Assembly: GCA_002688135.1 (NCBI GenBank)
Contig: NZCD01000031.1
Location: forward strand, 4,544-68,543
Direction of reading: 5' to 3'
Source of the DNA: Parcubacteria group bacterium
GTDB taxonomy: Bacteria > Patescibacteriota > Patescibacteriia > Magasanikbacterales > GCA-002688135
DNA: 64,000 nt
The notes below the pieces were generated by a model. The model was not told where the DNA came from and ran no database searches. It saw nothing but the letters and a program-made list of their open reading frames with translations. Numbering within the stretch: position 1 is the stretch's first letter; the number at the start of each line of letters is the position of its first letter. Both the position numbers and the translations under genes were made by a program. This document shows positions 25,143 to 50,154 of this stretch, one piece after another.

Positions 25143-26609
25143 ATGGATACACAATGCTACGACATAATGAATCAACAGGAGGAGAAGCATTGGTGGTTTC
25201 GCGCCAAGGCAGATATTGTAATTCGATTATTAGAAAAAAATATCGGTCCACTTATAGGTAAAAAGATTTTGGATGTTGGATGCGGCACGGGGTACATGTT
25301 ACAAAGACTCACTGATAAAGGCGCAGTAGTCTATGGAATAGACCCCAGCTGCAGCGCAGTTGGATATGCAAAGAAAAAATCTAACTCAACAGTGGTATTG
25401 GGAGAAGGAGAATCAATTCCATTTCCATCAAACTCATTTGATGTGGTGTGCGCATTAGATGTATTGGAACACCGCGAAAATGACAAAAAAGCTATAGAAG
25501 AAATCAAGCGAGTTTTGAAACCAAATGGATATGCACTCATAACAGTTCCTGCGTTACAATCACTTTGGACAAAGCAAGACGAGCGACTACATCACCATCG
25601 TAGATACGCAAAAGATGAGTTGCGAGATATTATTCAACCGCTCGGAGAAATTCACAAAATAAGTTATTACAATTCATTTTTATTTCCTCCAATCGCCACA
25701 GTAAAAATTGCAAAAAGATTCATCCCATCACTCGATACAAAAGATGAAGTGGACATGACACCAAAAGGATGGATCAATAATGCGTTATATAAAATATTCT
25801 CATCAGAAAAGCACCTCATCACTCGCATGTCGCTCCCAATCGGAGTTTCATTGCTTTCGCTAAGTCAATATTGCCCAAATCAAGAAAATCAGCTACCATG
25901 GCAACTTATGAAAGTTTCAATAATCATTCCGTGTTACAACGAAAAAAAGACAATTCGCGAGATTGTCTCTCGTGTAAAAGCATCTCCAATTTCAGAAGAA
26001 AAGGAGATTATTATTGTTGACGATTTCTCAACAGATGGAACGCGAGACATTTTGGCAGAAATAGAAAATGAGGGAGTCACTGTCGCATACCAAAAAGAAA
26101 ACCAAGGAAAAGGTGCGGCACTTCGCGCGGGATTTGCAAAAGCAACGGGAGATGTATGTATCATTCAAGATGCAGATTTAGAATATAATCCTGATGAATA
26201 CAATCGACTGCTTGATCCTATTCGTGATGGCAACGCAGATGTAGTTTATGGATCAAGATTTGTTGGTTCTGATGCTCATCGTGTTTTATACTATTGGCAT
26301 TCAATAGGAAATAAATTTCTAACATGGATGTCCAACATGTTCACAAATGTGAACCTAACTGATATGGAAACATGCTACAAAGTATTCAAAACACCAATCA
26401 TAAAAGAAATCCTACCACACTTAAAATCCGACAGATTTGGATTTGAACCAGAAGTCACTGCGCGTCTTGCTCGTCGACGAGTCCGCATGTACGAAGTTGG
26501 AATTTCATATCAAGGGCGAACATACGAAGAAGGAAAAAAGATCGGATGGTGGGATGGAGTAAAAGCGATTTTTTCAATTTTCTACTTCAACGTCATAGAT
26601 AGAAAGTGA
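25143..26609 (+). CDS. Bifunctional class-I SAM methyltransferase (N) - GT2 glycosyltransferase (C) fusion
   Basis: N-terminal [11 protein letters not shown] (motif I) and [12 protein letters not shown] (post-II). The C-terminal half carries [25 protein letters not shown] and QDADLEY (DxD), the motifs of DPM1/GtrB-like GT2 enzymes. Confidence 0.75.
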
Positions 26610-26642
26610 CACGCAGTGTCATCCCGGCGCAGGCCGGGATCC
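26606..26642. repeat. Family-C element, half copy (GTGTCATCCCGGC-gcag-GCCGGGATCC)
   Basis: Hairpin TCCCGGC/GCCGGGA with a tetraloop plus a GGATCC site, starting at the stop codon of the upstream gene. Confidence 0.65.
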
Positions 26643-26648
26643 AGTATT

Positions 26649-28841
26649 ATGAATAATAAGATTCCGTGTTCAGTCACGATTCTCACACTAAACAATGAAG
26701 ATACGATTAGACAGTGCCTCGACTCTGTCTCTTTTTGTGATGACATTATCGTACTGGATGGAAACTCTACAGATAAAACAGTTGAGATCGCAAAGGAGTT
26801 TGGAGCACGTATATACCCCCAAGTTGAAGGGCCACATGCAAATATAGCGATTCAGAACTTCACACAGATGCGCGTGAAATCATTTAACCTCGCAAAAAAC
26901 GACTGGGTATTTTATGTTGATTCAGATGAGTATATTGATGAAGACTTGAAAGAAGAAATTCAAAAACTCGTACAAGACAATGACAAAAATATAGTAGGAC
27001 GATTCCGTCGCATTGCAATCGTGGAAGGAAAGAAAATCGACAAAGCATATTTCTATCCAGAATTTGCAGATCGTCTCATAAACAGAAAAGCCGGAATTCA
27101 TTGGAAGCCAGGATCGCGCGTACATGAATCTTTAGTCTTTCCAGAAGGAGCTGAAAAGAAAGAATTAAAAGGAGAACTGTTTTCATATTGGCCAGATTTA
27201 GAAAAATGCAAAAAGAAGGACAAACATTATTTGAAATTGGCACGGGAAAAATTTATTGATGCCGCACACAAAACAAAATGGACAGATTTTTTGAGAGGAT
27301 TATGGAAGAATACACTCCGAGCAAAAAAAGTGTTCGCTCTTGCGCTGTGGCTTCCGCTACGATATCGAGACGAAAATGTCCTCCCATTTCGTTATCATAT
27401 GAGATTTTTTTGGTACAACCTGATCCATGCCTGGCATCCTGTAAAATTTAAAGCACTCATTGTAGCATCATGGAAACGACTTCCCAAAATGCTCAAAACA
27501 ATCATGATGGCTGCACTAGTAATTAGAGTAGTATTATTTGCAGTCCTTCTCATCACACAAGGACAATCAAGTTTTGTATATGGACCAAACGGTGATGCAG
27601 TAGAATTCGTCACAATCGCAGAAAACATAAAAAATCACGGAGAATTTTCATTATCAGAAAGTGAGCCATTTTTAGCCAATGACTTCAGAACACCCGGAAT
27701 GCCAGCATTCCTATTGCTCACCGGCGGCGCGCATGGAGCATACTGGCCAGGAGTAGTCGTTCAGATCCTCGCATCATTGGCGCTAATTTTAATGATCTAC
27801 TTTTTCACAAAAAGATACTTCAATGAAAACATCGCATTCATCGCAGCCGGCCTCGCAGCACTCGAACCAAACATGTGGTACTGGCCAACACAGTTAATCG
27901 GAGAATCACTTTTTACAGTTTTCCTATTTGGTGCAATATATTGCTTCGTAGATTATTTAGAATCCAAAAGAATGGGTGTATTGATCGGATACGCAATCCT
28001 ATTAGCAATCGCAACATACTTAAGACAAATATCATATCCACTAATTTTCCTTCTGCCGCTCGTCGGATTATTGAGCATTAACAAACAACGATTCACAAAA
28101 ATGGCAATCGCCGTCATGATGCCGCTCGTTCTTCTCGCACCATGGTTCTACAGAAACCATGTCGTGCTCGGAGATTTCACATACGGTTCATCATTCGCAG
28201 TTCGTGGAAGCGTAGGAAAATACGTGGAAAGCTACACACAAAAGAAATTCCAAAAGCCACCAATAGAAGTATATGAAGAATTGCAAAATGTTTCAGGAGA
28301 AGATGCAGCAGGCGCTATGATGGGAGTAGCACTCAAATCACTAGCAAAAGATCCGCTTGCATATATTGGAATCGGAGCAACAACTCTCGTACCATTTTTC
28401 GCATCAGATGGTTGGTTCACTATCGCAAAATCTGTAGAGCCAACATTTGAAATCGGAGCATTCGACAAAACATGGCTGGGAGAACCGGGAGCCTTCGAAA
28501 CATTCGTTTCAAATTATGTTCAATCTGGCGGAATCGTATTTCTCATCGCAAAAGCACTATATGCATTATTGACGCTCGCAATCTTATTCGGTTTACTCAT
28601 AGCATTGAAAGATAAGCAAAGCAGAAAGTTAGTGCTGTTACTTTTTCTTGTAATATTATATTTCGCTGCAGCATCGGGACTCGGCAGCTATGCAAGATTC
28701 CGCTATCCTATTCAGCCAATACTATTCATTTTCGCTGCAATTTTTCTAGCTCGATACAGCAGGCTGTCATCCCAAGCCAATAGGCTGTCATCCCGAGCCA
28801 ATAGTCTGTCATCCCGAGCGAAGTCGAGGGATCCCTCTTAA
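26649..28841 (+). CDS. GT2 glycosyltransferase domain fused to a C-terminal polytopic membrane domain (GT-C/ArnT-like?)
   Basis: N-terminal MNNKIPCSVTILTLNNEDTI...YVDSDE is GT2 with a DxD motif. About 12 TM helices follow. The track start (26616) lies inside element C1, so the ATG at 26649 was chosen. The last ~25 aa (LSSQANRLSSRANSLSSRAKSRDPS) are encoded by tandem family-C repeat units. Confidence 0.6.
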   Translation: MNNKIPCSVTILTLNNEDTIRQCLDSVSFCDDIIVLDGNSTDKTVEIAKEFGARIYPQVEGPHANIAIQNFTQMRVKSFNLAKNDWVFYVDSDEYIDEDLKEEIQKLVQDNDKNIVGRFRRIAIVEGKKIDKAYFYPEFADRLINRKAGIHWKPGSRVHESLVFPEGAEKKELKGELFSYWPDLEKCKKKDKHYLKLAREKFIDAAHKTKWTDFLRGLWKNTLRAKKVFALALWLPLRYRDENVLPFRYHMRFFWYNLIHAWHPVKFKALIVASWKRLPKMLKTIMMAALVIRVVLFAVLLITQGQSSFVYGPNGDAVEFVTIAENIKNHGEFSLSESEPFLANDFRTPGMPAFLLLTGGAHGAYWPGVVVQILASLALILMIYFFTKRYFNENIAFIAAGLAALEPNMWYWPTQLIGESLFTVFLFGAIYCFVDYLESKRMGVLIGYAILLAIATYLRQISYPLIFLLPLVGLLSINKQRFTKMAIAVMMPLVLLAPWFYRNHVVLGDFTYGSSFAVRGSVGKYVESYTQKKFQKPPIEVYEELQNVSGEDAAGAMMGVALKSLAKDPLAYIGIGATTLVPFFASDGWFTIAKSVEPTFEIGAFDKTWLGEPGAFETFVSNYVQSGGIVFLIAKALYALLTLAILFGLLIALKDKQSRKLVLLLFLVILYFAAASGLGSYARFRYPIQPILFIFAAIFLARYSRLSSQANRLSSRANSLSSRAKSRDPS
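28762..28837. repeat. Family-C element, tandem variant (3x GGCTGTCATCCCRAGCCAATA units ending ..CGAAGTCGAGGGATCCCTC)
   Basis: Three direct repeats of a ~21-nt unit carrying the TGTCATCCC core; they form the 3' end of the upstream CDS. Confidence 0.6.
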
Positions 28842-28845
28842 CAAT

Positions 28846-29535
28846 ATGAAAAACATAAGTTTCATCATCCCCGCATACAACGAAGAAAAATCAATTCGAA
28901 CTGCGATTGAGGAGGTTTTGAAATACGCTGATGAAAATTTAGACACATGCGAAGTAATCGTAGTTGATGATGGGAGCGCAGATGGAACCGCGACATACGC
29001 GTCAGCTTATCCAGATCAGCGAGTAAAACTAATCAAACACAAAACAAATAAAGGAAAAGGCGCGGCAGTAAAAACAGGAGTTGATGCAGCGACGGGGGAA
29101 TGGATTATTTTTCTTGATGCTGATCTTTCAACTCATCCGAGAGATGTCGAAACTCTCAAACCATTCGCACACACACACGACATCATGATCGGCTCACGTG
29201 CACTCCCAGAATCAAACCTCACCAAACGACAACCAAAACGAAGAGAATTACAAGGGCGATTATTCAACAAAGTAATTAAAAAATTCCTAGGACTTCCTTT
29301 TGAGGACACGCAATGCGGATTCAAAGCATTTCACAAAAAAACAAAACACATCTTTTCTGCTCTCCAAACAGACGGCTGGATCTTCGATGTAGAACTCTTA
29401 AAATTCGCACAAAAAAATGGATACTCCATAAAAGAAGTGCCCATCACCTGGCAGGATGATCCGGATTCTCGGGTGAGATCATCTCATGCCATCCAAATCC
29501 TCCGCGACCTCTACAACGCAAAACGCAGAATATAA
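28846..29535 (+). CDS. GT2 polyprenyl-phosphate glycosyltransferase (DPM1/GtrB/ArnC-like)
   Basis: ISFIIPAYNEEKSI, VVDDGSADGT and LDADLS (DxD) motifs; 229 aa. Confidence 0.8.
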   Translation: MKNISFIIPAYNEEKSIRTAIEEVLKYADENLDTCEVIVVDDGSADGTATYASAYPDQRVKLIKHKTNKGKGAAVKTGVDAATGEWIIFLDADLSTHPRDVETLKPFAHTHDIMIGSRALPESNLTKRQPKRRELQGRLFNKVIKKFLGLPFEDTQCGFKAFHKKTKHIFSALQTDGWIFDVELLKFAQKNGYSIKEVPITWQDDPDSRVRSSHAIQILRDLYNAKRRI

Positions 29536-29557
29536 AAAAACCGCGTACGCGGTTTTT
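29535..29557. terminator. Bidirectional terminator AAAAAACCGCGTACGCGGTTTTT between convergent genes
   Basis: 6-bp GC stem with an A-run and a T-run on either side, immediately after the stop at 29535. Confidence 0.75.
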
Positions 29558-29562
29558 GTGAA

Positions 29563-30123: not shown

Positions 30124-30154
30124 AGGCTAGCAGAATTTGGGATGTATGTCAAGA

Positions 30155-31552: not shown

Positions 31553-31617
31553 AATCGAGAAGCAGGAATTAAGAATTAAGAATACGCTTCGCTTGGCTGT
31601 TACACAGCTTGTAGAAT

Positions 31618-31686
31618 TGTCATCCCGGCGAAGGCCGGGATCCATGCTGATTAGCAAGATGGATCCCGGCCTTCGCCGGGATGACA
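31618..31686. repeat. Family-C element, full palindrome (TGTCATCCCGGCGAAGGCCGGGATCC - 17 nt - GGATCCCGGCCTTCGCCGGGATGACA)
   Basis: Perfect 26-bp inverted arms, each itself a hairpin with a GAAG loop. Creates spurious ORFs on both strands. Confidence 0.8.
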
Positions 31687-31704
31687 GTCTAGGGGCTGCG
31701 ATGG

Positions 31705-32721: not shown

Positions 32722-32817
32722 AGTGGGCTATTTTAGGCATATTCACCCTGCATGTCAAAAGGTTGCTTTTCGCACAATGTCATGATACGATACGAATCAA
32801 TAATTTCATATAAATCT

Positions 32818-34269: not shown

Positions 34270-34914
34270 ATGCACACAAAAGAACAACTCGAAGAAATCT
34301 ACGAACAAGTCCCGGCAACATACTGGGACGATTCGTATGCTAACAATCGAATGCAGAAACTGTATTATGATATGCGATTCAAACATGTGAATCGTATGCT
34401 CGCAGACGTTCCAGAAGCGGGAAGAGTTTTGGATGTTGGATGCTCATCAGGATTTTCGTTGAGCCACTACTCCAAGGCGCGCCCTGATATTCATTATGCT
34501 GGAGCAGATGTTGCGGAACATCATATTGCATATGCAAAACAAGAGCGTCCGCAGTTTACATTTGCGCATGCTCCAGCAGAAGCTCTACCATTTGAGGAAA
34601 ACACATTCGACGCAGTCACGATGCTGGATGTAATAGAGCATGTTGTTGATTTGGATAAAACTCTTTCAGAAGTAAAACGTGTATTAAAACCAGGAGGAAG
34701 TTTCATTGTATTTGTTGTTGAAGAACATCATGTGGTATTCCAAGTGATTTGGTGGTTCTGGTTAAAAACAAAAGGAAAAGTTTGGGAGGAAGCACATTTG
34801 CGAGATTATGATAAGAAGAGTTTGATTGCTGATTTGGAAAAAGCTGGATTTACAATTGATGAATTTAAAAGATCGCATGGGACGACATGTCTCATTGTGA
34901 AGGCAATATGTTGA
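34270..34914 (+). CDS. Class-I SAM-dependent methyltransferase
   Basis: VLDVGCSSGFS (motif I) and LKPGGSFIVFV. Confidence 0.75.
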   Translation: MHTKEQLEEIYEQVPATYWDDSYANNRMQKLYYDMRFKHVNRMLADVPEAGRVLDVGCSSGFSLSHYSKARPDIHYAGADVAEHHIAYAKQERPQFTFAHAPAEALPFEENTFDAVTMLDVIEHVVDLDKTLSEVKRVLKPGGSFIVFVVEEHHVVFQVIWWFWLKTKGKVWEEAHLRDYDKKSLIADLEKAGFTIDEFKRSHGTTCLIVKAIC

Positions 34915-40101: not shown

Positions 40102-40102
40102 T

Positions 40103-41236
40103 ATGAAATTATCCTACATCGCAAACATGAGGCTTCCATCAGACCGCGCACATGCATGGCAAATTATGCGCATGTGTCAGGCTTTTGCGAACAATAATCA
40201 TGATGTCACGCTCTACGTTCCAAAACGTAAAACAGATAGTGATAAAAATCCGTTCGAGTATTACAACTTACAACCAAATTTCAAAATCAAAAGAATTCCA
40301 GTCATTGATCTATTTCCTATCAAATGGATGCCACGCAAAATCGCGTACTGGGTAAACACATTCACGTTTTCAATCGGACTCATGTTCAAATTGGGAAAGA
40401 TGAAAAAAGGTATCGTATATTCCCGTGATCCATTCTCAACCTTCGCAATCGGAAGATTCGTGAAAGATTGGTGTTACGAAGTTCACGACTCCCCTAAAAA
40501 AACATTTCTCAATAAGATTCTCTTTGGCGGAATCAAGCATGTTGTTGCGACAAATACATGGAAAAGAAATCAGCTCGCTGATACTTTCAATCTAAACAAA
40601 GATGAAATGAACATCGCGCATCATGGGGTTGATGTAGATGTATTTGCAGAACTCCCTCAAAAGCATGAGGCATTTCGCGTAACAGGATTATCACCGCAAT
40701 ATAATCACGTGGTATACACAGGCCATTTATTTGAATGGAAGGGTGTATATGCACTAGCACGAGCTTCACGATTTCTCGATCAAAATACACGCGTTGTGCT
40801 GGTGGGAGGGACTCCAGAAGATGTAGAAAAGATGCAGGATTTCATCGATAGAGAGCAATTAGACCGCGTACAATTAACAGGTTTCAAACAGCGAGCCGAC
40901 ATGCTACACTATGTGGCTTGTGCTGATTTATTCGTCATTCCAACTTCAGCGAAATTCCAAATTGGAATGTATGAATCATCACCACTCAAGTTATTTGAAT
41001 ACATGGCAACTGGAAAACCTATTGTTGCGACAGACCTTCCAGCTATACGTGATATTGTAGATGAGACCATGGTAGAGTTTTGCGAACCGGACAAGGCTTC
41101 GCAGTTAGCACAAATCATCACGCAAACATTAGAACAACCATCACAACAAAAAATACAAACAGCTGCTGACTATGTGAAAAAGAATACATGGGAAGCACGC
41201 GCAAAAAAATTAGTAACATTCATACATGGAAAATAG
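40103..41236 (+). CDS. Glycosyltransferase family 4
   Basis: ESSPLKLFEYMATGKPIVATDLPAIRDIV (EX7E). The track start (40025) overlaps the upstream gene; the ATG at 40103 follows a GGAGAAG RBS and the upstream stop. Confidence 0.8.
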   Translation: MKLSYIANMRLPSDRAHAWQIMRMCQAFANNNHDVTLYVPKRKTDSDKNPFEYYNLQPNFKIKRIPVIDLFPIKWMPRKIAYWVNTFTFSIGLMFKLGKMKKGIVYSRDPFSTFAIGRFVKDWCYEVHDSPKKTFLNKILFGGIKHVVATNTWKRNQLADTFNLNKDEMNIAHHGVDVDVFAELPQKHEAFRVTGLSPQYNHVVYTGHLFEWKGVYALARASRFLDQNTRVVLVGGTPEDVEKMQDFIDREQLDRVQLTGFKQRADMLHYVACADLFVIPTSAKFQIGMYESSPLKLFEYMATGKPIVATDLPAIRDIVDETMVEFCEPDKASQLAQIITQTLEQPSQQKIQTAADYVKKNTWEARAKKLVTFIHGK

Positions 41237-42179
41237 CGAGCAATGCCCAGTATGCGCATCGACTGAAAGAACAGTTGTTGCAACCATCGGTGATTTAAAT
41301 AAACCGCTCACCAACGTGATTTGCGAATCATGTGGTTTGATTTTTATTACCCCGCGAAAACAAATCGCAGAAGTAGAAGAATTCCATGTAGAAGATTTTT
41401 TGAAAAATAAAGGATACGAAGAAGCTGATCACTTTGAACACAAATTGAGTGCATCAGAAATTCCAACGAAAAAACGCATCGCAGAAGTTATCATTCCTCA
41501 TATGCCAGGCGGGGGAACGGTGTTAGATGTTGGGTGTGGAATTGGAACGCTCGTAAGTATTTTGCTGGACCGAGGGTACAAGGCTGAAGGGATTGAATTA
41601 GCACGAATCGAGATTGAAGCAGCAAAGAAGTTCTATGATGTAGACCTATATTTGGGAAGCTTAAGAAAATACGCTACAGAACATCCGGAAAAGAAGTTCG
41701 ATATGATCGTTCTGCATCACACACTCGAACACATGACAGACCCACAAGGCGAACTACACTTCATGAAATCAATGCTATCTGAAAATGGAAAAATCTATAT
41801 CGGCGTACCAAATGTAACAAACATGAAAAAAAGACCAGAAGTCTATTTTGAATCAGGTCATGTTGTAACATACTCGCCGCGCTCGCTAGCTCACGCACTG
41901 GAAGCACAAGGACTATATCCATCATACTTCTCAACCAAGGCGGTGTATCCAGGAGGAATGGGTGTGATTGCTGGAACTAAGCCCGCAGACAACACAGCAT
42001 TATTACAAAAAGAAATGAAAGGTATGGGTCATCCAAAAGATGTGAAATATTACATCAAGAAAAAGGGTGCTCAATTTGCTACAGCTCGTGTCTGTCGAGA
42101 TATTGGATTATTCTTCATTCCGAAAAAAGCTCGAGTCAAAATAGGTCGGGCAATTTCAAATTGGATGAAAAATAGATAG
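41226..42179 (+). CDS. Class-I SAM methyltransferase with N-terminal Cys4 zinc-ribbon
   Basis: CPVCAS...CESCG zinc ribbon; VLDVGCGIGTL motif I; MLSENGKIYIGVP. Paralog of the 49228 gene. Confidence 0.75.
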   Translation: MENSEQCPVCASTERTVVATIGDLNKPLTNVICESCGLIFITPRKQIAEVEEFHVEDFLKNKGYEEADHFEHKLSASEIPTKKRIAEVIIPHMPGGGTVLDVGCGIGTLVSILLDRGYKAEGIELARIEIEAAKKFYDVDLYLGSLRKYATEHPEKKFDMIVLHHTLEHMTDPQGELHFMKSMLSENGKIYIGVPNVTNMKKRPEVYFESGHVVTYSPRSLAHALEAQGLYPSYFSTKAVYPGGMGVIAGTKPADNTALLQKEMKGMGHPKDVKYYIKKKGAQFATARVCRDIGLFFIPKKARVKIGRAISNWMKNR

Positions 42180-42372: not shown

Positions 42373-44220
42373 ATGAAAAACCCACTAACAAACAAAACCC
42401 TACAAATAATCATAGCTGCGACACTCGCGGGGTTCTTTTTTATAGGAAGACATTTGACGATGTGGTGGTATCAGCTGCAGCAGGGCGCACCATTCAACTT
42501 TTTTACTTTTGAGCAAATCGATCCGCTTTCAAATCTCGCGCCTATTTTCAGACAGGTTTTGGATGGGGGGTTATATGTTACGGATGGACGAGTTTTGGAA
42601 TGGGTTGCAGGACCAAGTCTGTGGTCGATATTATCTCCAATAGTCGGATATCCAATTTTAGCTATCACACAAAACATATCTCTAACATTTTTGATTGGAA
42701 CATTACTATCAGCAGTCTTAACATTTATCGCAGCATACGCAATCGCAAAACATCTAACGAAAAATCACTGGTGGGCGATCTTATCATCATTTATATTTGT
42801 AAACGCAACACTCATTGTATTATTTATTCTGCCGATTGATATTGAAGGATTAAAAGTTCTAGCAAGATCATTTTGGCTAGGTTCACCTCCAGGAGATATT
42901 TTGATGAGTAGATATGTCAGTTTTTCAGTTTTCCCAACCTGGCCAGTATTTGTATTTTCATTACTTGGATTATTAAAACTTGCAGCAAACCCAACATCAA
43001 AAAAATGGTTCTGGTTCACCGCAATCTCGTGCGCAATGCTCACACACATGTATGTCACAGATGCGATGTACATTTTCGGCGGGATGGCATTAATGGTGGT
43101 TTGGTTCTTTTTACAAACAGATACACAACGAGCAAAAACATATCTTAAAACAATATTTCTTTCTACTGCATTATCAGCGCCATACATTTTCAATTATCTC
43201 TCAATCCAAGCTCTCCCGCATGCACAAGAGTTAGTTGAACGACTCGGCGCAGAATTCACACATAGTTTTCGTGTAAGCGCATGGCCACAATATTTGGTAA
43301 TGATAATTCTAGCCTACGGAGTTTGGAAATGGGGGAAAGCAGAAAACAGAACTCCAGAAGCAACAGTAATTGGATCTTTAGTTCTCGGTGGAATCGGAAT
43401 TTTGAACATGCAATTGATTTTGGGATTCAATCCACATCCTCCGGTTTGGCCTGTACATCAATTTTATTTAGGATATGCCGCAGCATTCCTTGTAATCGCG
43501 CATCTATTTATTACACATGGATTAAGATCAGCATGGCTTAAAAAAGCCGGAACAACAGTTTTAGTAATTGCATCAGTCGCAGTTATTGGACGAGCAATCC
43601 AAGCAGAATTTATTTCAGGGACACACTTTCAAGAATCATCAGTCATGCCAGAAAATATCCGAAACTCACTAGAATGGATTAACGATAATACACCAACAAA
43701 CAGTGTCGTCGCATCACCATCAGCAACAACAAATAGCTTAATTCCTGTATTTACCGGGGCACACTCAATCCAACCTCTTGCTGTTACCTCCGCCGCGCCA
43801 CTATCAGAAGTAGTTGGACGCTGGTTGACCATCTCAAAGCTCTATGGTATTCCTGAAACAACTCTGGTAACATCTCTGAAAAAAGAGCACACAGATATCG
43901 ACAATTTTGCTCTCGATTCAGAAAACGCAACTGCCATATTCCTCTTCGATACATTCTTCTGGAAAAAGGGATTGGGCGCATTCGATGAAGGCCGACAATT
44001 ATTCATTCCAGATGAAGCGATCGAAAAGATTATTGCCGAATATCAAGCGCTTCCAGAGGGTGAAGAATTGCTTAAAACATATCGAATGGATTATCTATAT
44101 GTTGGACCATACGAACGGGCACTTGTCATGAAAGACCTGGACTACGAATTTCTTAAAAAAGTCTATGACGAAGATGACGTTCAAATTTATAAAATCAATC
44201 AATCATTTCTAGAATTATAG
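42373..44220 (+). CDS. Polytopic membrane protein with C-terminal extracytoplasmic domain; paralog of the membrane moiety of the 34887 GT2 fusion (candidate GT-C-like transferase/polymerase)
   Basis: Shared blocks: LGGIGILNMQLILGFNPHPPVW vs LPIGIVLNLQLLLGFNPQPDHW; PENIRNSLEWINDNTPTNSVVASPSATTNS vs PDIQESFAWINENVDKDSVIISPSTRTST; and C-terminal QIYKI vs DIYKIL. Confidence 0.55.
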   Translation: MKNPLTNKTLQIIIAATLAGFFFIGRHLTMWWYQLQQGAPFNFFTFEQIDPLSNLAPIFRQVLDGGLYVTDGRVLEWVAGPSLWSILSPIVGYPILAITQNISLTFLIGTLLSAVLTFIAAYAIAKHLTKNHWWAILSSFIFVNATLIVLFILPIDIEGLKVLARSFWLGSPPGDILMSRYVSFSVFPTWPVFVFSLLGLLKLAANPTSKKWFWFTAISCAMLTHMYVTDAMYIFGGMALMVVWFFLQTDTQRAKTYLKTIFLSTALSAPYIFNYLSIQALPHAQELVERLGAEFTHSFRVSAWPQYLVMIILAYGVWKWGKAENRTPEATVIGSLVLGGIGILNMQLILGFNPHPPVWPVHQFYLGYAAAFLVIAHLFITHGLRSAWLKKAGTTVLVIASVAVIGRAIQAEFISGTHFQESSVMPENIRNSLEWINDNTPTNSVVASPSATTNSLIPVFTGAHSIQPLAVTSAAPLSEVVGRWLTISKLYGIPETTLVTSLKKEHTDIDNFALDSENATAIFLFDTFFWKKGLGAFDEGRQLFIPDEAIEKIIAEYQALPEGEELLKTYRMDYLYVGPYERALVMKDLDYEFLKKVYDEDDVQIYKINQSFLEL

Positions 44221-44221
44221 T

Positions 44222-45160
44222 ATGGAACGAAAACGAGTTTTAGTAACAGGAGGAGCAGGATATGTGGGATCAGTATTGGTCCCGGAACTTTTGAGTAAGG
44301 GATTCGAAGTGACTGTTCTTGATAACCTATCATACAATAATGGTCGCTGCATTTTACAAAATTTCTACAGCAATCATTTTCAGTTTGTGAAAGGGGATAT
44401 ACGAGATCGCGTTTTGGTAGATAAACTCGTTGGTCAGGCAGACCACATCATCCACCTAGCAGCGATTGTGGGATATCCGGCATGTCGCAAAGATGAACGT
44501 TTAGCCCAAGAAGTAAATGTGATCGGAACAGAAAATATTGCACGTGCAGTGCAGCCTCATCAAACAATTCAATTCGCTTCAACAGGTTCTGTATACGGAG
44601 CGATTGGAGAAACATGTACGGAAGAGACTGTGGCGAATCCACTCACGATCTACGGAAAAAATAAACTCGATGCTGAAAACATTTTGAAAGAACACTGCAC
44701 ACCAATCATCTATCGCTTCGCAACTGCGTTTGGATTGGCCGGTCGCTTACGAATGGATTTGATGATTAATGATTTTGTATATCAAGCAATTCATACGAAA
44801 CACCTAATCGTGTATGAAAAGCATTTCCGACGTACATTCATTCATGTGAGAGATATTGCGCGTGTGTTTGTGCATGGTCTGGAAAAGTATGAAGAAATGA
44901 AGGGACAAACATACAATGTGGGACACGAAACAATGAACTACACAAAAGAAGACATTGTGAACAAAATTCGAGCACGCGTGCCATTTTATCTTCACTTTGC
45001 GGAGTTTGCGAAAGATCAAGATCAACGAGACTACGAAGTAAACTATCAGAAAATTCGTGCAACAGGATTTGAAACAAAAATTTCAATGGACACAGGATTA
45101 CGTGAGTTGATGGACGCGCTAGAAATCGTCACTATCCCTAATCCATACTCAAATATATAG
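44222..45160 (+). CDS. NAD-dependent sugar-nucleotide epimerase/dehydratase (extended SDR)
   Basis: VLVTGGAGYVGSVLV (GxxGxxG); STGSVYG; YGKNK (YxxxK). Confidence 0.8.
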   Translation: MERKRVLVTGGAGYVGSVLVPELLSKGFEVTVLDNLSYNNGRCILQNFYSNHFQFVKGDIRDRVLVDKLVGQADHIIHLAAIVGYPACRKDERLAQEVNVIGTENIARAVQPHQTIQFASTGSVYGAIGETCTEETVANPLTIYGKNKLDAENILKEHCTPIIYRFATAFGLAGRLRMDLMINDFVYQAIHTKHLIVYEKHFRRTFIHVRDIARVFVHGLEKYEEMKGQTYNVGHETMNYTKEDIVNKIRARVPFYLHFAEFAKDQDQRDYEVNYQKIRATGFETKISMDTGLRELMDALEIVTIPNPYSNI

Positions 45161-45381
45161 CCCACGAATGGTACAAATCATTTACAAATCTACAAATCCT
45201 CGATTAGCAACAGCCCGACCAACTGTCATTGCGAGCGTTTTAGCTAAGCAATCTGATTCCACAAACTGGATTCTATCGACGGAGCCTGCACTGGAGTAAA
45301 GTGATAGGGACTCCAGAATGACGCACTAAGTAGTTAGGCGGAAATTTGTAGATTTGTAGTAGATTTGTAATATTCGTGGGA
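45161..45381. mobile_element. Family-B MITE-like element (~220 bp) with the same TIRs; inner part carries the TGTCATTGCGAGCG motif
   Basis: TIRs CCCACGAATGGTACAAATCATTTACAAATCTACAAATC / GGAAATTTGTAGATTTGTAGTAGATTTGTAATATTCGTGGG. Confidence 0.7.
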
Positions 45382-45389
45382 ATAAAAAT

Positions 45390-46358
45390 ATGAATTTAAA
45401 AAACTATTACTTAGGAAAGCGAGTCATGATCACCGGCGGTGCCGGATTTTTGGGCAGTGAGATTATCAAACAACTCGCAGGGTTTGATTGTGAAATTATT
45501 GTACCTCGAAAAAAGAATTACGATTTAACAAGTCAGGAAGATGCGTTGGCATGTGTACGACAATCTAAACCCCATGTGATTATTCATGCAGCAGCATGGT
45601 ACGGAGGCCCTCCAATTCACGAAGCATACCCTGCAAAAATGTTTTACGAAAACACGATGATGGGAATGAATGTTATGCATGCATCACATCTGTGCGATGT
45701 AGAAAAAGTTGTGATCATCGGATCAGATTGCGCATATCCCGGATATCTCGGAAAAGAAGTATTATCAGAAGATGATTTATTTTCTGGAAAACCACATGCA
45801 TCAGCAATTGATTACGGAATGGTAAAACGATTCCTTTCGGTGCAAGCATGGGCATACAACAAACAATACGGATTAAATGCAAACTTCCTCATTCTCACAA
45901 ACATGTACGGAGAAGGGGACAACTTCAATCCAGAATCATCACATGTTGTTGGCGCACTTATTCGAAGGTTCACTGAAGCAGTAATAGAAAATAAAGATGA
46001 AGTAGAAGTTTGGGGATCAGGAAAACCAACACGAAACTTTTTGTATGTGAAAGATGCAGCGCAAGGTGTGATTCGTGCGACAGCGTTATATGATTCTCAC
46101 GAACCAATCAACATTACAACAGGACAAGGAAACTCAATTAAGGAGCTTGCTGAAACAATTGCAGAAGTCACAGGATTCCGCGGACGACTAAAATGGCTCA
46201 CAGAAAAACCAGACGGACAAATGAAAAAAGTTCTGGATGTTTCAAGAATGAAAGAACATTTGAATTGGCAGCCGGAATTTACACTGAAACAAGGATTAGG
46301 AAACACTGCGAATTGGTATAAGGCGAATAAGGAGGTCGCAGACGCTAAAAAGAAATAG
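45390..46358 (+). CDS. fcl: GDP-L-fucose synthase (GDP-4-keto-6-deoxy-D-mannose 3,5-epimerase/4-reductase)
   Basis: VIIHAAAWYGGPPIHEAYPAKMFYENTMMGMNVMHASHLCDVEKVVIIGSDCAYP and NMYGEGDNFNPESSHVVGALIRRF align block-for-block with Fcl/WcaG (VYLAAAKVGG..NTYPADFIYENL..NVIHAAH..V.KLLFLGSSCIYP; NLYGPHDNF.P.NSHVIPALLRRF). 322 aa. Confidence 0.85.
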   Translation: MNLKNYYLGKRVMITGGAGFLGSEIIKQLAGFDCEIIVPRKKNYDLTSQEDALACVRQSKPHVIIHAAAWYGGPPIHEAYPAKMFYENTMMGMNVMHASHLCDVEKVVIIGSDCAYPGYLGKEVLSEDDLFSGKPHASAIDYGMVKRFLSVQAWAYNKQYGLNANFLILTNMYGEGDNFNPESSHVVGALIRRFTEAVIENKDEVEVWGSGKPTRNFLYVKDAAQGVIRATALYDSHEPINITTGQGNSIKELAETIAEVTGFRGRLKWLTEKPDGQMKKVLDVSRMKEHLNWQPEFTLKQGLGNTANWYKANKEVADAKKK

Positions 46359-46560
46359 CCCGCGAATATTACAAATCAACTACAAATCTACAAATCCTTG
46401 ACTAGTAGCTCTGTAAATAGGCTGTCATTGCGAGCGCTTTAGCGTGGCAATCTGAAGCCAGATTGAGATTGCCACGCTAAAGCGCTCGCAATGACGTGTT
46501 GGTCGAGTGGTTGCTAAACGAGCATTTGTAGATTTGTAAAAGATTTGTACTATTCGTGGG
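46359..46560. mobile_element. Family-B MITE-like element (~200 bp); inner part is a TGTCATTGCGAGCGCTTTAGCGTGGCAATC ... palindrome
   Basis: TIRs CCCGCGAATATTACAAATCAACTACAAATCTACAAATC / GCATTTGTAGATTTGTAAAAGATTTGTACTATTCGTGGG. Inner 28-bp perfect inverted arms at 46424-46496. Confidence 0.7.
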
Positions 46561-46571
46561 TCAAAAAGGTT

Positions 46572-47285
46572 ATGCAGCCAAAAGTTTCAATCATGATTCC
46601 AATATGGTCCGAGGTAGATTCTCTCAAAGTGGTAGTCGACGGACTCTACGAACGAATCGGAGATTACATACATGAAATATTTTTCATCGTCGCGCCGCAG
46701 TCATCTGCTGCGTGTTTTAATATGTGCCAAAGATTGGCGTCGGAACATCCAGAAATACAAGTGATGATTCAAAAAGTATGCCCGGGGTTGGGACATGCAT
46801 ATAAACAAGTATTTCCACATGTCACAGGAACACACATGCTAGTCATTGATGCAGATGACGAAATGGATTTAGACACAGTCCCTAAAATGGTAGCTGCCGC
46901 AGAACAAGGATATGATTTAGTTTTACCTACGAGATGGATGCCAGGAGGAGGAGTAAAAGGATACGACACCATGACGTATATTTTAAATAGAGGATTCCAA
47001 ACAATTTTCAGATTAGTATTTCTAACACCCGCACGCGATCTCACATACGGTTTCAAACTATTCAATACAAGACTCATCAATGAAGTTGATTGGTGGGGAG
47101 AATGGCATGAGATCGCCATGGAAACAACACTCAAGCCACTCAAGCTCGGATACAAATACATTGAAATACCAACCTGGTGGAAAGCGCGCACACAAGGAGT
47201 TTCAAAAATAAACACTCTCAAAAGAATGCGATACGTAAAATTCGCACTACGTATTAGATTCGCAAATATCAAAAAGCGTATTTAA
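46572..47285 (+). CDS. GT2 glycosyltransferase (DPM1-like)
   Basis: VSIMIPIWSEVDSL and LVIDADDEMD (DxD). The track start (46545) was trimmed to MQPKVSIMIP. Confidence 0.65.
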   Translation: MQPKVSIMIPIWSEVDSLKVVVDGLYERIGDYIHEIFFIVAPQSSAACFNMCQRLASEHPEIQVMIQKVCPGLGHAYKQVFPHVTGTHMLVIDADDEMDLDTVPKMVAAAEQGYDLVLPTRWMPGGGVKGYDTMTYILNRGFQTIFRLVFLTPARDLTYGFKLFNTRLINEVDWWGEWHEIAMETTLKPLKLGYKYIEIPTWWKARTQGVSKINTLKRMRYVKFALRIRFANIKKRI

Positions 47286-47881: not shown

Positions 47882-49222
47882 ATGAACTTGTTACGAAACT
47901 TATTTCGATCAAAACGTGAGACAAGTATATTCTTTTTTGCGCTAGCCGTCCAGTCTATTATTCTCTATCTCACAATGAAAACCGCTTCTGGTGGTTTTTT
48001 GTGGACATCAGATGCAGAACTCTATTTTGATTTAGGACGAAACCTCCTCGAGACAGGAGGATTTTACATGCATCCAGATCTCGACCCGCAAACCATCCGA
48101 ACGCCACTGTATCCATTATTTGTCGCAGGATTATACGGACTCACACACTCACTATTTTTTGTCATCGCAATTCAAAATATAATCGCTGCGTATGTACTAG
48201 TGATTATCTATCGCATTGGTGCAACACTTGTTTCAGAAAGAGTAGCATTAATCGGCACAGTATTATTTATGCTCGAAGCTCGCCGATTGACCAACGCATC
48301 ACAACTCATGTCAGAAACACTTTTCATGCTATTTTTCGCTCTAAGTATCTACTGGCTGATAATATATCTCAAAACAAAACAAGACAGAAAACTAATCATC
48401 GGAAGCGCGATTGCTGCAGGACTCGCTATTATGACACGACCATTTCTGATCCCAGTCATTCCACTTTTTGTATTACTCATCCTATTTGTTTTTTGGAAAA
48501 AGAAGTTTGCTATCAAACATGCTGCGCTCTATGTGATTCTCGTAATCGCTGTCATCATGCCATGGTCCGCCCGAAATTATTATCACTTCAAAACAATCAA
48601 TCCAATCTCAACTGCTGGTGCAAATGCATATTTAACAGCAGCACCACGCTTCCTGGAATATTATGAACCAGGAGAAGAAAGGTATGCAGGGCTCGTGACA
48701 CAGGCAGTGGGAGATCTCAATTACACGGGACTACCACATCTCACACCAGAAGAATCATTTGTGAGATTCGGAATTTTCGAATTTCAATATCAAGATTATC
48801 TAACCACGCACGCACGCGAAATCATCTCTCAAGATTATCTTTTATTCGGACGTGTTATCGCACAAAAGATGGGAGTATTTTTCATAGAAAGTTCTGCATC
48901 AAGATCCTATAGCATACTATTCCACCAACTAAATCCACCACAACAAATCTTCTATCCATTCCTATATTTCGGCGGGCGAATCTGGTGGGCAATTATGTTC
49001 TTGCTGATGGCATTTGGATTCTGGAAATATCTTGCCACTCACAAAGACAAAGCTTCGCGAGGTATCATAGCAACAATAATCATCATGATGTTATTCTTCG
49101 CTTTTATATCATCAATGAATAAAGATACTCCGCGATTACGAATTCCAATCACACCATTTATAACCTTGTTTGCGGCCTACGGTGCAACTATTGCCATGAA
49201 GTATAAATTGTGTAAGGATTAG
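47882..49222 (+). CDS. Polytopic membrane glycosyltransferase, GT-C-like (ArnT/PMT_2/GT39-83-like)
   Basis: About 11-12 TM helices. First extracytoplasmic loop TSDAELYFDLGRNLLETGGFYMHPD resembles the ArnT/PMT acidic first-loop motif. No soluble domain. Confidence 0.45.
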   Translation: MNLLRNLFRSKRETSIFFFALAVQSIILYLTMKTASGGFLWTSDAELYFDLGRNLLETGGFYMHPDLDPQTIRTPLYPLFVAGLYGLTHSLFFVIAIQNIIAAYVLVIIYRIGATLVSERVALIGTVLFMLEARRLTNASQLMSETLFMLFFALSIYWLIIYLKTKQDRKLIIGSAIAAGLAIMTRPFLIPVIPLFVLLILFVFWKKKFAIKHAALYVILVIAVIMPWSARNYYHFKTINPISTAGANAYLTAAPRFLEYYEPGEERYAGLVTQAVGDLNYTGLPHLTPEESFVRFGIFEFQYQDYLTTHAREIISQDYLLFGRVIAQKMGVFFIESSASRSYSILFHQLNPPQQIFYPFLYFGGRIWWAIMFLLMAFGFWKYLATHKDKASRGIIATIIIMMLFFAFISSMNKDTPRLRIPITPFITLFAAYGATIAMKYKLCKD

Positions 49223-49227
49223 CTTTT

Positions 49228-50154
49228 ATGAAAACCATTCCAGAAACAATAGAAATGGAGTCAGTAAAACAGTGTCCAATCTGCGCGCATACAACATTCA
49301 GCAAAATCGCAGACAAAGGTATTGTCGAAAAAGCTGGCGAACCATACGCAATGACAAATGTGATTTGCACACGATGTTCATGTGTATTTTTAAATCCACG
49401 ACCAACAGAAAATGGATATGCGGAATTCTATAAAACGCTCTACGTTTCAGATCGAGGAGAATCAACAAGAGAGGGTGAGGGTATTGTGATGAACAAAGAT
49501 ACAAGCAAAAAAACAGGATCAATCGCGCTCGCGTTGGAACCGCACATTAAGAAAGGGGATCGCATTTTGGTGATCGGCGGAGGATTGGGAATGGCATCGG
49601 CACATCTGCGAGATTATTTTGAAGCACATGTAGAAATGATTGAACCCTCACAAGAACAAGCAGGGCATGCATCAAACAAATACAATCTTGAAGTTCACAA
49701 CATGGATTGGGAAACATTTACAAAAACGCATTCTGAAAAAAAATACGATGCAATTGTCATGCATCATGTACTCGAACACTTTCCGCATCCCGTAACAATG
49801 CTCACAGAAGCGCGAAGCTATCTCAAAACAAATGGAGTATTATATATCGAAGTACCAGACGCAAATGACTACAAAAAACCAAAAGCACATTTTTTCGATT
49901 TACTTCATCCAATTAGTTTCTCACCATCTTCTATGTTTTGGACATTGCACTACGCAGGCCTCAAAGCAATTTGGAAAAATGAAAACAAAAAAACAAGATT
50001 ACAAATTATTGTACAAAAAGCAGAAGATGCTCAAGACAAGCAAAACATCCTATCTGCAAAAAAATTGGGTACACCCATAACAGTGTGCTATGGGCTCTAC
50101 AGAACAATGTGGGAGATCGCATACAACATAAAGAACTTTAAGAAAGCTGCATGA
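49228..50154 (+). CDS. Class-I SAM methyltransferase with N-terminal zinc-ribbon (paralog of 41226)
   Basis: CPICAH...CTRCSC; ILVIGGGLGMA; LKTNGVLYIEVP. Confidence 0.75.
   Translation: MKTIPETIEMESVKQCPICAHTTFSKIADKGIVEKAGEPYAMTNVICTRCSCVFLNPRPTENGYAEFYKTLYVSDRGESTREGEGIVMNKDTSKKTGSIALALEPHIKKGDRILVIGGGLGMASAHLRDYFEAHVEMIEPSQEQAGHASNKYNLEVHNMDWETFTKTHSEKKYDAIVMHHVLEHFPHPVTMLTEARSYLKTNGVLYIEVPDANDYKKPKAHFFDLLHPISFSPSSMFWTLHYAGLKAIWKNENKKTRLQIIVQKAEDAQDKQNILSAKKLGTPITVCYGLYRTMWEIAYNIKNFKKAA

Follow-up and report, generated by a model that had tools for sequence, protein, structure and literature searches.

What are seven methyltransferase (MT) domains doing among the glycosyltransferase (GT) genes of a surface-glycan locus, and at which stage of glycan assembly would they act? 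The question is raised by a contig from a Tara Oceans Parcubacteria MAG (marine, CPR/Patescibacteria), of which a stretch of 64,000 nucleotides, here called the window, was analysed (Table 1; genes are named by their first coordinate). The genes considered form the core of a surface-glycan island that spans 64 kb or more, and according to Pfam the window encodes Wzx, several GT-C enzymes and four proteins with Wzy_C. An AsnB-like amidotransferase, ManNAc-type 2-epimerases and a PseF-like cytidylyltransferase are also encoded in the window.

Methyltransferase content and gene order

A class-I SAM MT domain had been predicted from the sequence in each of seven genes, and all seven exceed the Pfam gathering cut-off. 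The glycine-rich motif I is present in the MT sequences, MT3 being the most divergent (VGLGNA). The sequence-only reading had further placed seven MTs within about 25 kb; all seven domains are real and lie where they had been placed, but only six are inside the 25 kb between 25143 and 50154, and the seventh starts 12.5 kb further on, giving seven in 38.9 kb. Interleaved with them are five genes with a GT2 domain (25143, 26616, 28846, 34887 and 46545). MT-bearing genes account for 7 of 46 ORFs, with a binomial P of between 4e-7 and 4e-4 for an assumed background of 1 - 3% of genes. The conserved MT richness of syntenic loci is stronger evidence of enrichment than this P value. The syntenic core recurs in Uhrbacteria and other Patescibacteria MAGs with 4 - 7 MT genes per 20 kb (six each in L002 and L005, four or five in L006, L008, L009, L014 and L015), and the order MT3 - GT4 - ZnMT4 - unk615 - SDR - SDR - GT2 - ZnMT6 - Wzx is kept in these groups at protein identities of 32 - 56%. 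The order of GT2, GT4, GT-C, Wzx and TagF-like genes relative to the MTs is conserved across Patescibacteria.

The individual MTs differ in how widely their positions are shared. MT3 is always directly upstream of GT4, with orthologues 48 - 65% identical in L002, L005, L008-L011 and L016, and in L002 and L010 it is fused to an MT1-like domain in ORFs of 458 aa. In L009 the GT2_876 orthologue is preceded by MT2, and this is so in L005 as well, where one deacetylase/carbamoyltransferase gene comes between the two. The position of MT6 just upstream of Wzx is conserved in L002, L005, L006 and L008 and the SDR pair is syntenic in all core loci, while MT5 is restricted to close relatives (L006, L007). 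MT7 is cut by the window end and its dehydrogenase part scores 209 bits against NCBIfam PGDH, below the cut-off; given this fusion to a 2-hydroxyacid dehydrogenase, its target may be a glycerate- or lactate-type hydroxy-acid substituent instead of a sugar ring.

Table 1. Features of the window discussed in the text, with the matches on which each description is based
Feature	Coordinates	Strand	Matches and remarks
MT1-GT2 fusion	25143..26609	+	Methyltransf_11 91.1 bits, residues 43-133; Glycos_transf_2 129.6 bits, residues 259-421
GT2 + GT-C (PMT_2) membrane glycosyltransferase fusion	26616..28841	+	Pfam GT2 54.7 bits, PMT_2 43.5 bits; at least 7 TM segments
Soluble Dpm1-like GT2, putative polyprenyl-P-sugar synthase	28846..29535	+	Pfam 121.9 bits; best NCBIfam AglJ, PgfS, ArnC, PpgS, all below cut-off
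MT2, class-I MT, 214 aa	34270..34914	+	Pfam 79.6 bits; 28-nt overlap with start of next gene
GT2 + ~600-aa polytopic domain (paralogous to 42373 protein)	34887..37517	+	Pfam GT2 82.7 bits; best NCBIfam ArnC; 9-10 TM segments
Polysaccharide deacetylase + formyltransferase, ArnD/ArnA-FT-like pair	37521..39243	+	Pfam, NCBIfam
MT3, divergent class-I MT, 206 aa	39481..40101	+	Pfam 50.2 bits, weakest of the MTs
GT4 glycosyltransferase	40025..41236	+	Pfam; 3' end overlaps zinc-ribbon MT start by 11 nt
MT4, zinc-ribbon (Cys4) MT, TcaB9-like three-domain fold	41226..42179	+	Methyltransf_23 73.8 bits
unk615, conserved 615-aa polytopic membrane protein	42373..44220	+	No Pfam family; ~8-9 TM segments
Two SDR genes	44222..46358	+	Pfam; one GalE-like, other GDP-fucose-synthase-like (NCBIfam Fcl 271 bits, cut-off 500)
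Soluble Dpm1-like GT2	46545..47285	+	Pfam; best NCBIfam AglJ, Dol-P-hexose transferase
MT5, class-I MT, 199 aa	47282..47881	-	Pfam 66.4 bits
GT-C (PMT_2) membrane glycosyltransferase	47882..49222	+	Pfam PMT_2 37 bits
MT6, zinc-ribbon MT, paralog of MT4	49228..50154	+	Methyltransf_23 65.6 bits
Wzx-type flippase	50151..51512	+	Pfam Polysacc_synt
MT7 fusion: D-2-hydroxyacid dehydrogenase (PGDH-like) + class-I MT	62661..64000	+	2-Hacid_dh_C 159.9 bits; Methyltransf_25 49.7 bits, residues 382-446

Family assignment of the methyltransferases

None of the seven MT domains reaches the cut-off of a named NCBIfam family, so that naming by HMM leaves their function unsettled and it is gene architecture that becomes informative. 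The envisaged classing as WbdD-, NodS- or TylF-like fits none of the seven, and in Pfam neither TylF (PF05711) nor NodS (PF05401) is listed for any of them at E <= 0.01. It could be argued that such generic class-I domains, as all seven are, serve quinone, RNA, lipid or small-molecule methylation and cluster beside glycan genes by chance, and the low gathering score of Pfam Ubie_methyltran is indeed passed by MT1 (31.0 bits), MT2 (50.2) and MT5 (22.9). However, generic MT families outscore UbiE over the same residues, and the NCBIfam equivalog cut-offs for UbiE, MenG, UbiG and rRNA MTs are reached by no MT (MT2 scores 61.7 against 216 for UbiE and MT1 55.6 against 102.95 for UbiG). Furthermore, MT genes overlap GT genes (34270/34887 and 40025/41226), MT fusions to GT2, GT4 and GT-C exist, the synteny is conserved and, with probes from the window alone, GT2, GT4 or GT-C is seen in no fewer than 28 of the 56 loci that have a zinc-ribbon MT relative, a co-occurrence that had been proposed as a check in other genomes. 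This explanation is disfavoured and we consider it extremely improbable; the NCBIfam result and the conserved order of GT, Wzx and TagF-like genes uphold the view that these MTs are part of a glycan locus and have no place in quinone or rRNA metabolism.

A role within glycan synthesis might still be one of capping, in which completed chains are O-methylated by the MTs on their non-reducing terminal sugars, so that the caps stop elongation and set the length of the chains. Termination by methyl caps is established chemistry (it is noted in PMC6120980), WbdD and WsaE being examples, and an MT fused to a GT resembles WsaE. Against this, the Pfam matches of the window contain no ABC transporter (ABC_tran) or kinase domain in any of the 46 ORFs and no coiled-coil terminator, the export and assembly genes are of the Wzx, Wzy_C and GT-C types, capping would need far fewer than seven MT domains, and the fused GT2 resembles Dpm1-like synthases of lipid-P-sugars and not chain-extending transferases. 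Since Pfam shows neither an ABC transporter nor a WbdD-like terminator in the window, the capping or termination role first suggested for these MTs finds no support, and we think it quite unlikely.

Gene fusions and proposed methylation on the lipid carrier

The fusions themselves indicate which enzymes the MTs accompany. The solved structures nearest to the GT2 half of 25143 are DPMS (5mlz), ArnC (9hwj) and GtrB (5ekp); its best NCBIfam match is AglJ at 119 bits, below cut-off, with PpgS also near, and no TM segment is predicted in the fusion protein. The best NCBIfam and structure matches of the GT2 genes are all polyprenyl-P-sugar synthases, with all scores below the equivalog cut-off, and three of the window's GT2 proteins are without a TM segment. 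Architecture was read for the best 120 of at least 8,000 relatives of 25143, which come from several phyla: all 120 are MT/GT2 fusions and in 118 of them the order is reversed (GT2-MT), these being about 60% identical to 25143 in the GT2 half and about 33% in the MT half. Neither of the two widespread GT2-MT relatives whose contexts were examined (P0159 and P0164) is part of a glycan cluster or has a GT-C gene beside it, which counts against the module reading set out below. Both the character of the GT2 half and the prevalence of the opposite-order fusion strengthen the original suggestion that the fusion couples methylation to polyprenyl-P-sugar synthesis.

GT2 domains are in turn fused to GT-C domains in 26616 and 34887, and PMT_2 is above the Pfam cut-off in 26616 and 47882. 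The polytopic domain of 34887 is 25 - 28% identical to relatives of unk615, and the unk615 family alignment (A5) gives weak matches to DUF6798, PMT_2 and GT-C_AftD. The AF2 model of unk615 is poor (pLDDT 59.5) and all 21 of its top Foldseek PDB matches are GT-C enzymes; judged by these Pfam matches and this model unk615 is probably a divergent GT-C, the assignment being a weak one both for it and for the C-terminal part of 34887. In relatives, zinc-ribbon MTs are fused to GT-C, either domain coming first (P0185, P0274 and P0221; Pfam MT_23 and PMT_2, homologues of 47882), to unk615 (P0184, P0186 and an ORF of L008) and to GT4 (P0187). All three pairwise fusion types, MT/GT2, GT2/GT-C and MT/GT-C, therefore exist, the last, like GT4-MT, in relatives. 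In crude TM maps the MT or GT2 part of a fusion precedes TM1, which is followed by a K/R-poor loop of 57 - 85 aa with invariant Asp residues, the usual GT-C topology.

SAM is confined to the cytoplasm, so methylation must precede export, and since MTs are fused both to enzymes that load the carrier and to those that attach the sugar outside, methylation of the sugars probably takes place on the carrier. We give about an even chance to the proposal, drawn from sequence comparison, that the MTs serve as auxiliary enzymes in modules for extracytoplasmic glycosylation by way of a lipid carrier. On the cytoplasmic side of the membrane a soluble Dpm1/GtrB/ArnC-like GT2 would load polyprenyl phosphate with a sugar, the SAM-dependent MT would methylate the sugar head group when carrier-bound or immediately before loading, the methylated lipid-linked sugar would be flipped across the membrane and a GT-C transferase would transfer it to a surface polymer or protein, several such modules being stacked in one island. 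No GtrA-type flippase was matched by Pfam among window ORFs of at least 100 aa, and intergenic gaps within 25-51 kb do not exceed 240 nt. Domain identities, synteny, gene fusions and fold similarity are observed; a lipid-linked monosaccharide as the substrate is deduced from them, as is anything said here about O- or C-methylation, about which sugars take part and about what finally accepts them. Fusion to a GT-C could, however, merely co-localise an MT that works on a growing lipid-linked oligosaccharide. To our knowledge methylation of a polyprenyl-P-monosaccharide has never been demonstrated. Precedent for cytoplasmic enzymes acting on a lipid-linked monosaccharide donor is found in the epimerase that converts undP-Ribf to undP-Xylf, and in DprE1/E2 (PMC11127046).

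The zinc-ribbon MTs raise the alternative that methylation takes place at the nucleotide-sugar level. MT4 and MT6, earlier described as zinc-ribbon paralogs, show 31% identity across 239 aa (E 1e-33) and share CPxC...CxxC, which bears that description out; no other two of the seven MT domains are clearly paralogous. In a 20-sequence alignment of their family, which comprises about 9,000 clusters at 50% identity (E <= 1e-30), C7, C10, C33 and C36 are invariant or nearly so; CxxC...CxxC occurs in 135 of the 145 top family matches, and the N-terminal Cys4 domain is predicted to bind zinc, as in TcaB9. The three-domain fold is also of the TcaB9/MtmC type, and the zinc-ribbon MTs might accordingly be enzymes that C- (or O-)methylate NDP-4-keto-6-deoxyhexoses, yielding branched-chain or methylated 6-deoxy sugars then used by the GT2 and GT4 enzymes. 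Profile matches to MtmC (E 7.5e-8) and TcaB9 (E 6e-5) reach beyond the Rossmann core, the C-terminal region alone as a profile having no PDB match, and two genes downstream there is a GDP-fucose-synthase-like 3,5-epimerase/4-reductase (45390), which keeps its place in the core loci. The active site of TcaB9 comprises His181, Tyr222, Glu224 and His225 (Holden laboratory mutants 4e2w-4e33). In the HMMER alignment the family-invariant H169 and H212 correspond to His181 and His225, but position 222 is an invariant Phe and 224 is Gly/Ala/Leu in place of Glu. Compared with NDP-hexose C-methyltransferases of the TcaB9/MtmC/TylC3 type the zinc-ribbon MTs are about 90 residues shorter, with just 14% identity to TcaB9, and Pfam Methyltransf_13 and Methyltransf_14 have no match in them at E <= 0.01. 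Their locus is without an adjacent 4,6-dehydratase, the neighbouring GalE-like SDR (44222) reading 'TGSVYG' without the dehydratase Asp/Glu residues. TcaB9, the closest structural relative, acts on a soluble NDP-4-keto sugar and not on a lipid, whereas relatives of the zinc-ribbon MTs carry GT4 or integral-membrane GT-C fusions, the latter being unexpected for a soluble nucleotide-sugar substrate. We regard methylation of nucleotide sugars as unlikely, though well worth keeping in mind.

Methylation on the lipid carrier is thus a concrete, testable biochemical hypothesis that follows from the fusion pattern. SAM methylation of polyprenyl-P-linked monosaccharide donors may be a real, widespread and undescribed step carried out by two unnamed families, the GT2-MT/MT-GT2 fusions and the zinc-ribbon TcaB9-fold MTs, a suggestion that we make tentatively and hold to be somewhat short of probable. 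If true, three-component extracytoplasmic glycosylation would gain a fourth component, a methylating one, and with stacked copies of it CPR bacteria would give themselves a heavily methylated surface. The fusion pattern also offers a first way into the function of these two very large families, whose enzymes could be of use where methylated sugars are to be made by glycoengineering. Genome size in CPR/Patescibacteria is about 1 Mb and the cells rely on contact with host cells, yet very little is known of their surface chemistry. The conservation across classes of an MT-rich island of 64 kb or more suggests that methylated, hydrophobic glycans, possibly protease- or lectin-resistant, are central to the CPR envelope.

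Comparison with known glycosylation systems

WsaE of the Geobacillus S-layer glycan and WbdD of E. coli O9a likewise couple an MT physically to assembly enzymes and place methyl groups on surface glycans, but they are chain terminators of ABC-transporter-dependent pathways, WbdD having a kinase domain and a coiled-coil ruler, and by Pfam the ABC transporter and kinase are absent from the window. That a sugar can be methylated with SAM while on a polyisoprenoid carrier has a precedent in Haloferax volcanii AglP, an MT whose target is a glycan linked to dolichol phosphate. It is archaeal and unfused, its substrate is a lipid-linked oligosaccharide and it is not known to be homologous to the window MTs; AglJ is the best NCBIfam match of the window's GT2 domains.

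The GtrA/GtrB/Gtr*, ArnC/ArnD/ArnT and CsbB/GtcA/YfhO systems and the pentofuranose system of Citrobacter youngae (PMC11127046) pair a GT2 polyprenyl-P-sugar synthase with a GT-C transferase, and the window has GT2 proteins that resemble such synthases beside GT-C enzymes. In such three-component systems auxiliary cytoplasmic enzymes can remodel the carrier-bound sugar, examples being deformylation by ArnD, the ORF13 epimerase and DprE1/E2 (PMC11127046), and, as in the Arn system, an ArnD-like deacetylase and an ArnA-like formyltransferase are encoded in the window. The window differs in that its proposed auxiliary enzymes are SAM MTs, often fused to the putative synthase or GT-C, there is no GtrA-type flippase gene among ORFs of at least 100 aa, the putative synthases are without TM anchors, several modules are stacked per island and the host is a CPR bacterium without LPS.

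The general protein O-glycosylation cluster of Tannerella forsythia (27 kb) is an experimentally proven MT-rich locus with three MTs, MtfJ, MtfO and MtfY, which add 4-O-methyl groups to a glycan with amidated ManNAcA and glyceroyl-modified pseudaminic acid, and its authors were unable to place the stage of methylation (PMC6120980). Its three MTs compare with seven in the window, no MT-GT or MT-GT-C fusions are described for it and its host is a Bacteroidota diderm. Both are nevertheless MT-rich glycan loci, and the window has AsnB-like, ManNAc-type 2-epimerase, PseF-like and 2-hydroxyacid dehydrogenase-MT genes.

Methyltransferases and glycan genes of the window

The window is almost entirely one polysaccharide or glycoconjugate locus, mostly on the plus strand and with a GC content of about 0.41. 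Pfam scans of 46 of its ORFs revealed four Wzy_C(+TPR) membrane proteins, four GT4 genes (including one double GT4), five genes with GT2 domains, two PMT_2 (GT-C) genes, a Wzx flippase, two TagF-like glycerophosphotransferases, three Epimerase_2 paralogs, five SDR epimerase/dehydratases, a PseF-like cytidylyltransferase, one each of AsnB-like amidotransferase, MBOAT, deacetylase and formyltransferase, and seven class-I SAM methyltransferase (MT) domains. Every gene in which the sequence-only reading had recognised an MT domain contains one above the Pfam gathering cut-off, but of the seven that it placed between 25143 and 50154 only six lie there, the seventh starting at 62661. Against an assumed background of 1 - 3%, seven MTs in 46 genes correspond to a binomial P of 4e-7 to 4e-4, and the cluster is real and non-random.

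None of the seven domains reached an NCBIfam curated cut-off, and their best matches (DVU_1556, UbiE, UbiG, BioC, MetW and others) were scattered and far under threshold. Pfam Ubie_methyltran exceeded its low gathering score in MT1, MT2 and MT5, but was outscored on the same residues by generic MT families. Since no domain passed an NCBIfam cut-off and generic families were ahead of UbiE, the HMM check proposed earlier did not assign the MTs to non-sugar families; it also gave no positive identification as sugar MTs, there being no WbdD-, NodS- or TylF-type match for any of the seven.

Four Wzy_C paralogs are an unusually high multiplicity for a single locus, and the large proteins adjoining these ligase-like genes could be surface proteins and substrates for glycosylation. 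The MBOAT protein and its 338-aa neighbour could form a glycan O-acylation pair. The arrangement at 37521-39243 fits the logic of the ArnD/ArnA-FT/ArnC/ArnT pathway, but the window contains no aminotransferase. The suggestion that methylation caps the glycan terminally, controlling chain length, finds no support: the Pfam scans turned up neither an ABC transporter nor a kinase, no coiled-coil terminator was apparent, and the assembly genes are of the Wzx/Wzy_C/GT-C type.

Features of the locus (window positions unless a related locus is named; minus strand marked)
Position	Feature	Details
19-2820, 2921-4525, 11271-13490 (-)	Large proteins	Two without Pfam family (933 and 739 aa); one Big_1/invasin-like Ig-domain protein
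4526-11243, 13550-16192	Four paralogous Wzy_C (O-antigen ligase/polymerase-like) membrane proteins	723-880 aa; TPR by Pfam in 3/4 (6804, 9072, 13550); three in tandem
22144	Epimerase_2 paralog
25143	MT1	MT-GT2 fusion
30155-32721 (-)	MBOAT acyltransferase beside 338-aa protein	338-aa protein of unassigned family, single TM segment; pair kept in L011, 338-aa protein also in L008
34270	MT2
34887	GT2_876	GT2 plus ~600-aa polytopic domain
37521-39243	Polysaccharide deacetylase, formyltransferase	Directly after GT2-GT-C fusion
39481	MT3
40025	GT4
41226	ZnMT4	Zinc-ribbon MT
42373	unk615	615-aa polytopic membrane protein
47282-47881 (-)	MT5
47882	GT-C
49228	ZnMT6	Zinc-ribbon MT
51721-64000	Teichoic-acid-like or nonulosonate-like gene set	Two TagF-like genes; CDP-alcohol-phosphatidyltransferase + HAD fusion; two Epimerase_2 paralogs; NeuD-like hexapeptide transferase; GH127/heparinase-like protein; PseF-like cytidylyltransferase (158 bits, cut-off 205.7); no NeuB/PseI-type synthase seen up to window end
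62661 onward	MT7	Fused to D-2-hydroxyacid dehydrogenase (PGDH-like); MT domain incomplete, runs off window end
L002 7483-8859, L010 2948-4324	458-aa double MT (Patescibacteria)	MT1-like domain + MT3 orthologue; slot occupied in window by deacetylase + formyltransferase

Conservation of the locus and the zinc-ribbon family

Of four window proteins looked up at NCBI, three are present there with their exact sequence (MAG11585.1, MAG11601.1 and MAG11613.1). The fourth, a zinc-ribbon MT (Zn-MT) that NCBI annotates only as 'hypothetical protein', shares a cluster with MAG11600.1 at 90% identity or more. All four records are annotated as 'Parcubacteria group bacterium' and belong to a 72.5-kb contig. 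The same protein clusters also contain Tara Oceans mesopelagic fragments. The family profile of the Zn-MT, run against a genome collection, picked out 56 loci; when all window proteins were compared with these by tblastn and genes were called on metagenomic contigs, a shared core emerged: [MT2] - GT2_876 - (deacetylase/formyltransferase or MT1-like MT) - MT3 - GT4 - ZnMT4 - unk615 - SDR - SDR - GT2 - ZnMT6 - Wzx - (further Zn-MT) - TagF. Candidatus Uhrbacteria (L008), further Patescibacteria (L010) and the MAGs L002, L005, L009, L011 and L016 share this core at protein identities of 32 - 56%. Core loci carry 4 - 7 MT domains per 20 kb; the abundance of MTs is therefore inherited with the locus rather than a chance feature of one genome. 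The possibility that the MTs have nothing to do with the glycan is contradicted by this conserved synteny, by overlapping genes and gene fusions, and by the presence of GT2, GT4 or GT-C in at least 28 of the 56 Zn-MT loci, counted with window probes alone.

Several related loci (L006, L007, L009, L011, L012, L016, L017 and L021) come from ENA TPA MAGs titled 'uncultured Gammaproteobacteria bacterium'; their Zn-MT relatives are 29 - 92% identical to those of the window and most of these MAGs have further cluster genes. A gammaproteobacterial origin was rejected, the exact window proteins (three of four) being Parcubacteria at NCBI and the other relatives Uhrbacteria or Patescibacteria, and the titles likely reflect a conflict of taxonomic labels.

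The zinc-ribbon genes at 41226 and 49228 are indeed the paralog pair that had been proposed (31% identity, E 1e-33); no other two of the seven MTs are clearly paralogous. They belong to a large family without a name, for which an exhaustive profile search gave 9,135 50%-identity clusters at E <= 1e-30; the CxxC...CxxC pattern is present in 135 of the 145 best matches, and an alignment of 20 members shows four conserved Cys, NPRP, motif I LDVGCGxG, an invariant HHxxEH, VPN and F208/H212. PDB searches with single Zn-MT sequences found only uncharacterised structural-genomics MTs, and the matches of the family profile to MtmC and TcaB9 reach beyond the core. In the HMMER alignment the invariant H169 and H212 fall on TcaB9 His181 and His225 respectively, whilst TcaB9 Tyr222 lies opposite an invariant Phe and Glu224 opposite Gly/Ala/Leu; this mapping was obtained solely with a profile spanning residues 163-285, and a C-terminal 68-residue profile alone found no methyltransferase. 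The pair thus has the architecture and, judging by this alignment, apparently two active-site histidines in common with the sugar C-methyltransferases TcaB9 and MtmC, but lies outside their family at the sequence level (Methyltransf_13/14 gave no match) and resembles them in fold only. A rival reading, that the pair methylates NDP-sugars at carbon or oxygen, is supported by this fold, the aligned histidines and an Fcl-like reductase nearby, but is weakened by the fusions of Zn-MTs to GT-C, by the missing TcaB9 Glu and Tyr and because no 4,6-dehydratase gene lies next to the pair. A role for the product of 44222 as a 4,6-dehydratase supplying a C-methyltransferase was rejected: it reads TGSVYG and lacks the catalytic Asp/Glu motif.

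Gene fusions and the proposed methylation of lipid-linked donors

Among the best 150 Zn-MT relatives, Pfam-confirmed fusions join a Zn-MT to a PMT_2 GT-C homologous to 47882 (P0185 and P0274, and P0221 with the Zn-MT at the C-terminus), to unk615 (P0184, P0186 and a 931-aa ORF in Uhrbacteria L008) or to a GT4 homologous to 40025 (P0187). The partners are exactly the window neighbours of the Zn-MT genes, namely GT4 / ZnMT4 / unk615 and GT-C / ZnMT6. P0196 takes such fusion to an extreme, combining four MT domains, three GT2 stretches, one GT4 and TPR repeats in a single polypeptide of 2,793 aa.

The unk615 protein, which has no Pfam family, has a paralog in the last 600 residues of the GT2 fusion at 34887 and contains about 8-9 TM segments, with a K/R-poor first loop bearing invariant R60, D64, G65 and D71. 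A homology search with it returned only 3 proteins; its family gave weak DUF6798, PMT_2 and GT-C_AftD matches, and the family profile had no match in PDB. The 21 best Foldseek PDB matches of its AF2 model are all GT-C enzymes (STT3, DPY19, PglB, AftA, AglB, ArnT and PimE), which is supportive only, as the model is poor (pLDDT 59.5). It is probably a divergent GT-C.

The GT2 half of 25143, which has no TM helices, is nearest to dolichol-P-mannose synthase, ArnC and GtrB among solved structures and to AglJ, PpgS, PgfS and ArnC among models. Of the best 120 relatives among 8,000 scored candidates, 118 have the reverse order, GT2 then MT, in about 465 aa (P0159 was checked by Pfam), and only two, both close relatives, share the order of 25143. 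These reverse-order proteins, from Thermoanaerobaculia, Acidimicrobiia, Actinomarinicola and Sumerlaea, are ~60% identical to 25143 in the GT2 half and ~33% in the MT half; they have no NCBIfam name, and no GT-C was adjacent in the two contexts inspected. Fusion of domains in both orders is a classical sign of action on one pathway intermediate, and points here to an intermediate common to MT and GT2.

All three kinds of pairwise fusion are found (MT-synthase, synthase-GT-C and MT-GT-C), for which the simplest model is a modified three-component system. A Dpm1-like GT2 would make a polyprenyl-P-sugar, an MT would methylate it at the cytoplasmic face, the methylated donor would be flipped and a GT-C would transfer the methylated sugar onto a surface polymer. 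SAM occurs in the cytoplasm and the active sites of GT-C enzymes point outwards, so methylation must precede export. The domains, synteny, fusions and fold in this model are established, whilst its substrate, regiochemistry, sugars and acceptor are inferred. We know of no precedent for methylation of lipid-linked monosaccharide donors. ArnD does remodel such a donor in the cytoplasm. Epimerases offer a further precedent for cytoplasmic remodelling of these donors (PMC11127046). MT7, which lies beside PseF-like cytidylyltransferase, NeuD-like and NeuC/WecB-like genes, may by inference serve a route to an O-methyl-glyceroyl-type substituent instead.

Comparison with known systems

On computational evidence throughout, the sequence-only reading was right in outline about a methylated surface glycan and the coupling of an MT to lipid-P-sugar synthesis, and probably wrong about capping; the O-methylation that it proposed is putative. 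The locus, in an uncultured CPR bacterium, yields a testable hypothesis on two large uncharacterised enzyme families. Literature searches on CPR glycan methylation, MT-GT2 fusions and TcaB9 found nothing directly relevant. Among glycan loci that are rich in MTs and have been studied by experiment, the best example found is the 27 kb O-glycosylation cluster of Tannerella forsythia, which has three MTs and whose glycan carries two 4-O-methyl groups, amidated ManNAcA and glyceroyl-pseudaminic acid; its authors left the stage of methylation open (PMC6120980). In its proposed working the locus is most like the three-component periplasmic glycosylation systems and the Arn pathway. It differs from them in its host, in its fusions, in having MTs as auxiliary enzymes and in showing no GtrA gene among its scanned ORFs of 100 aa or more.
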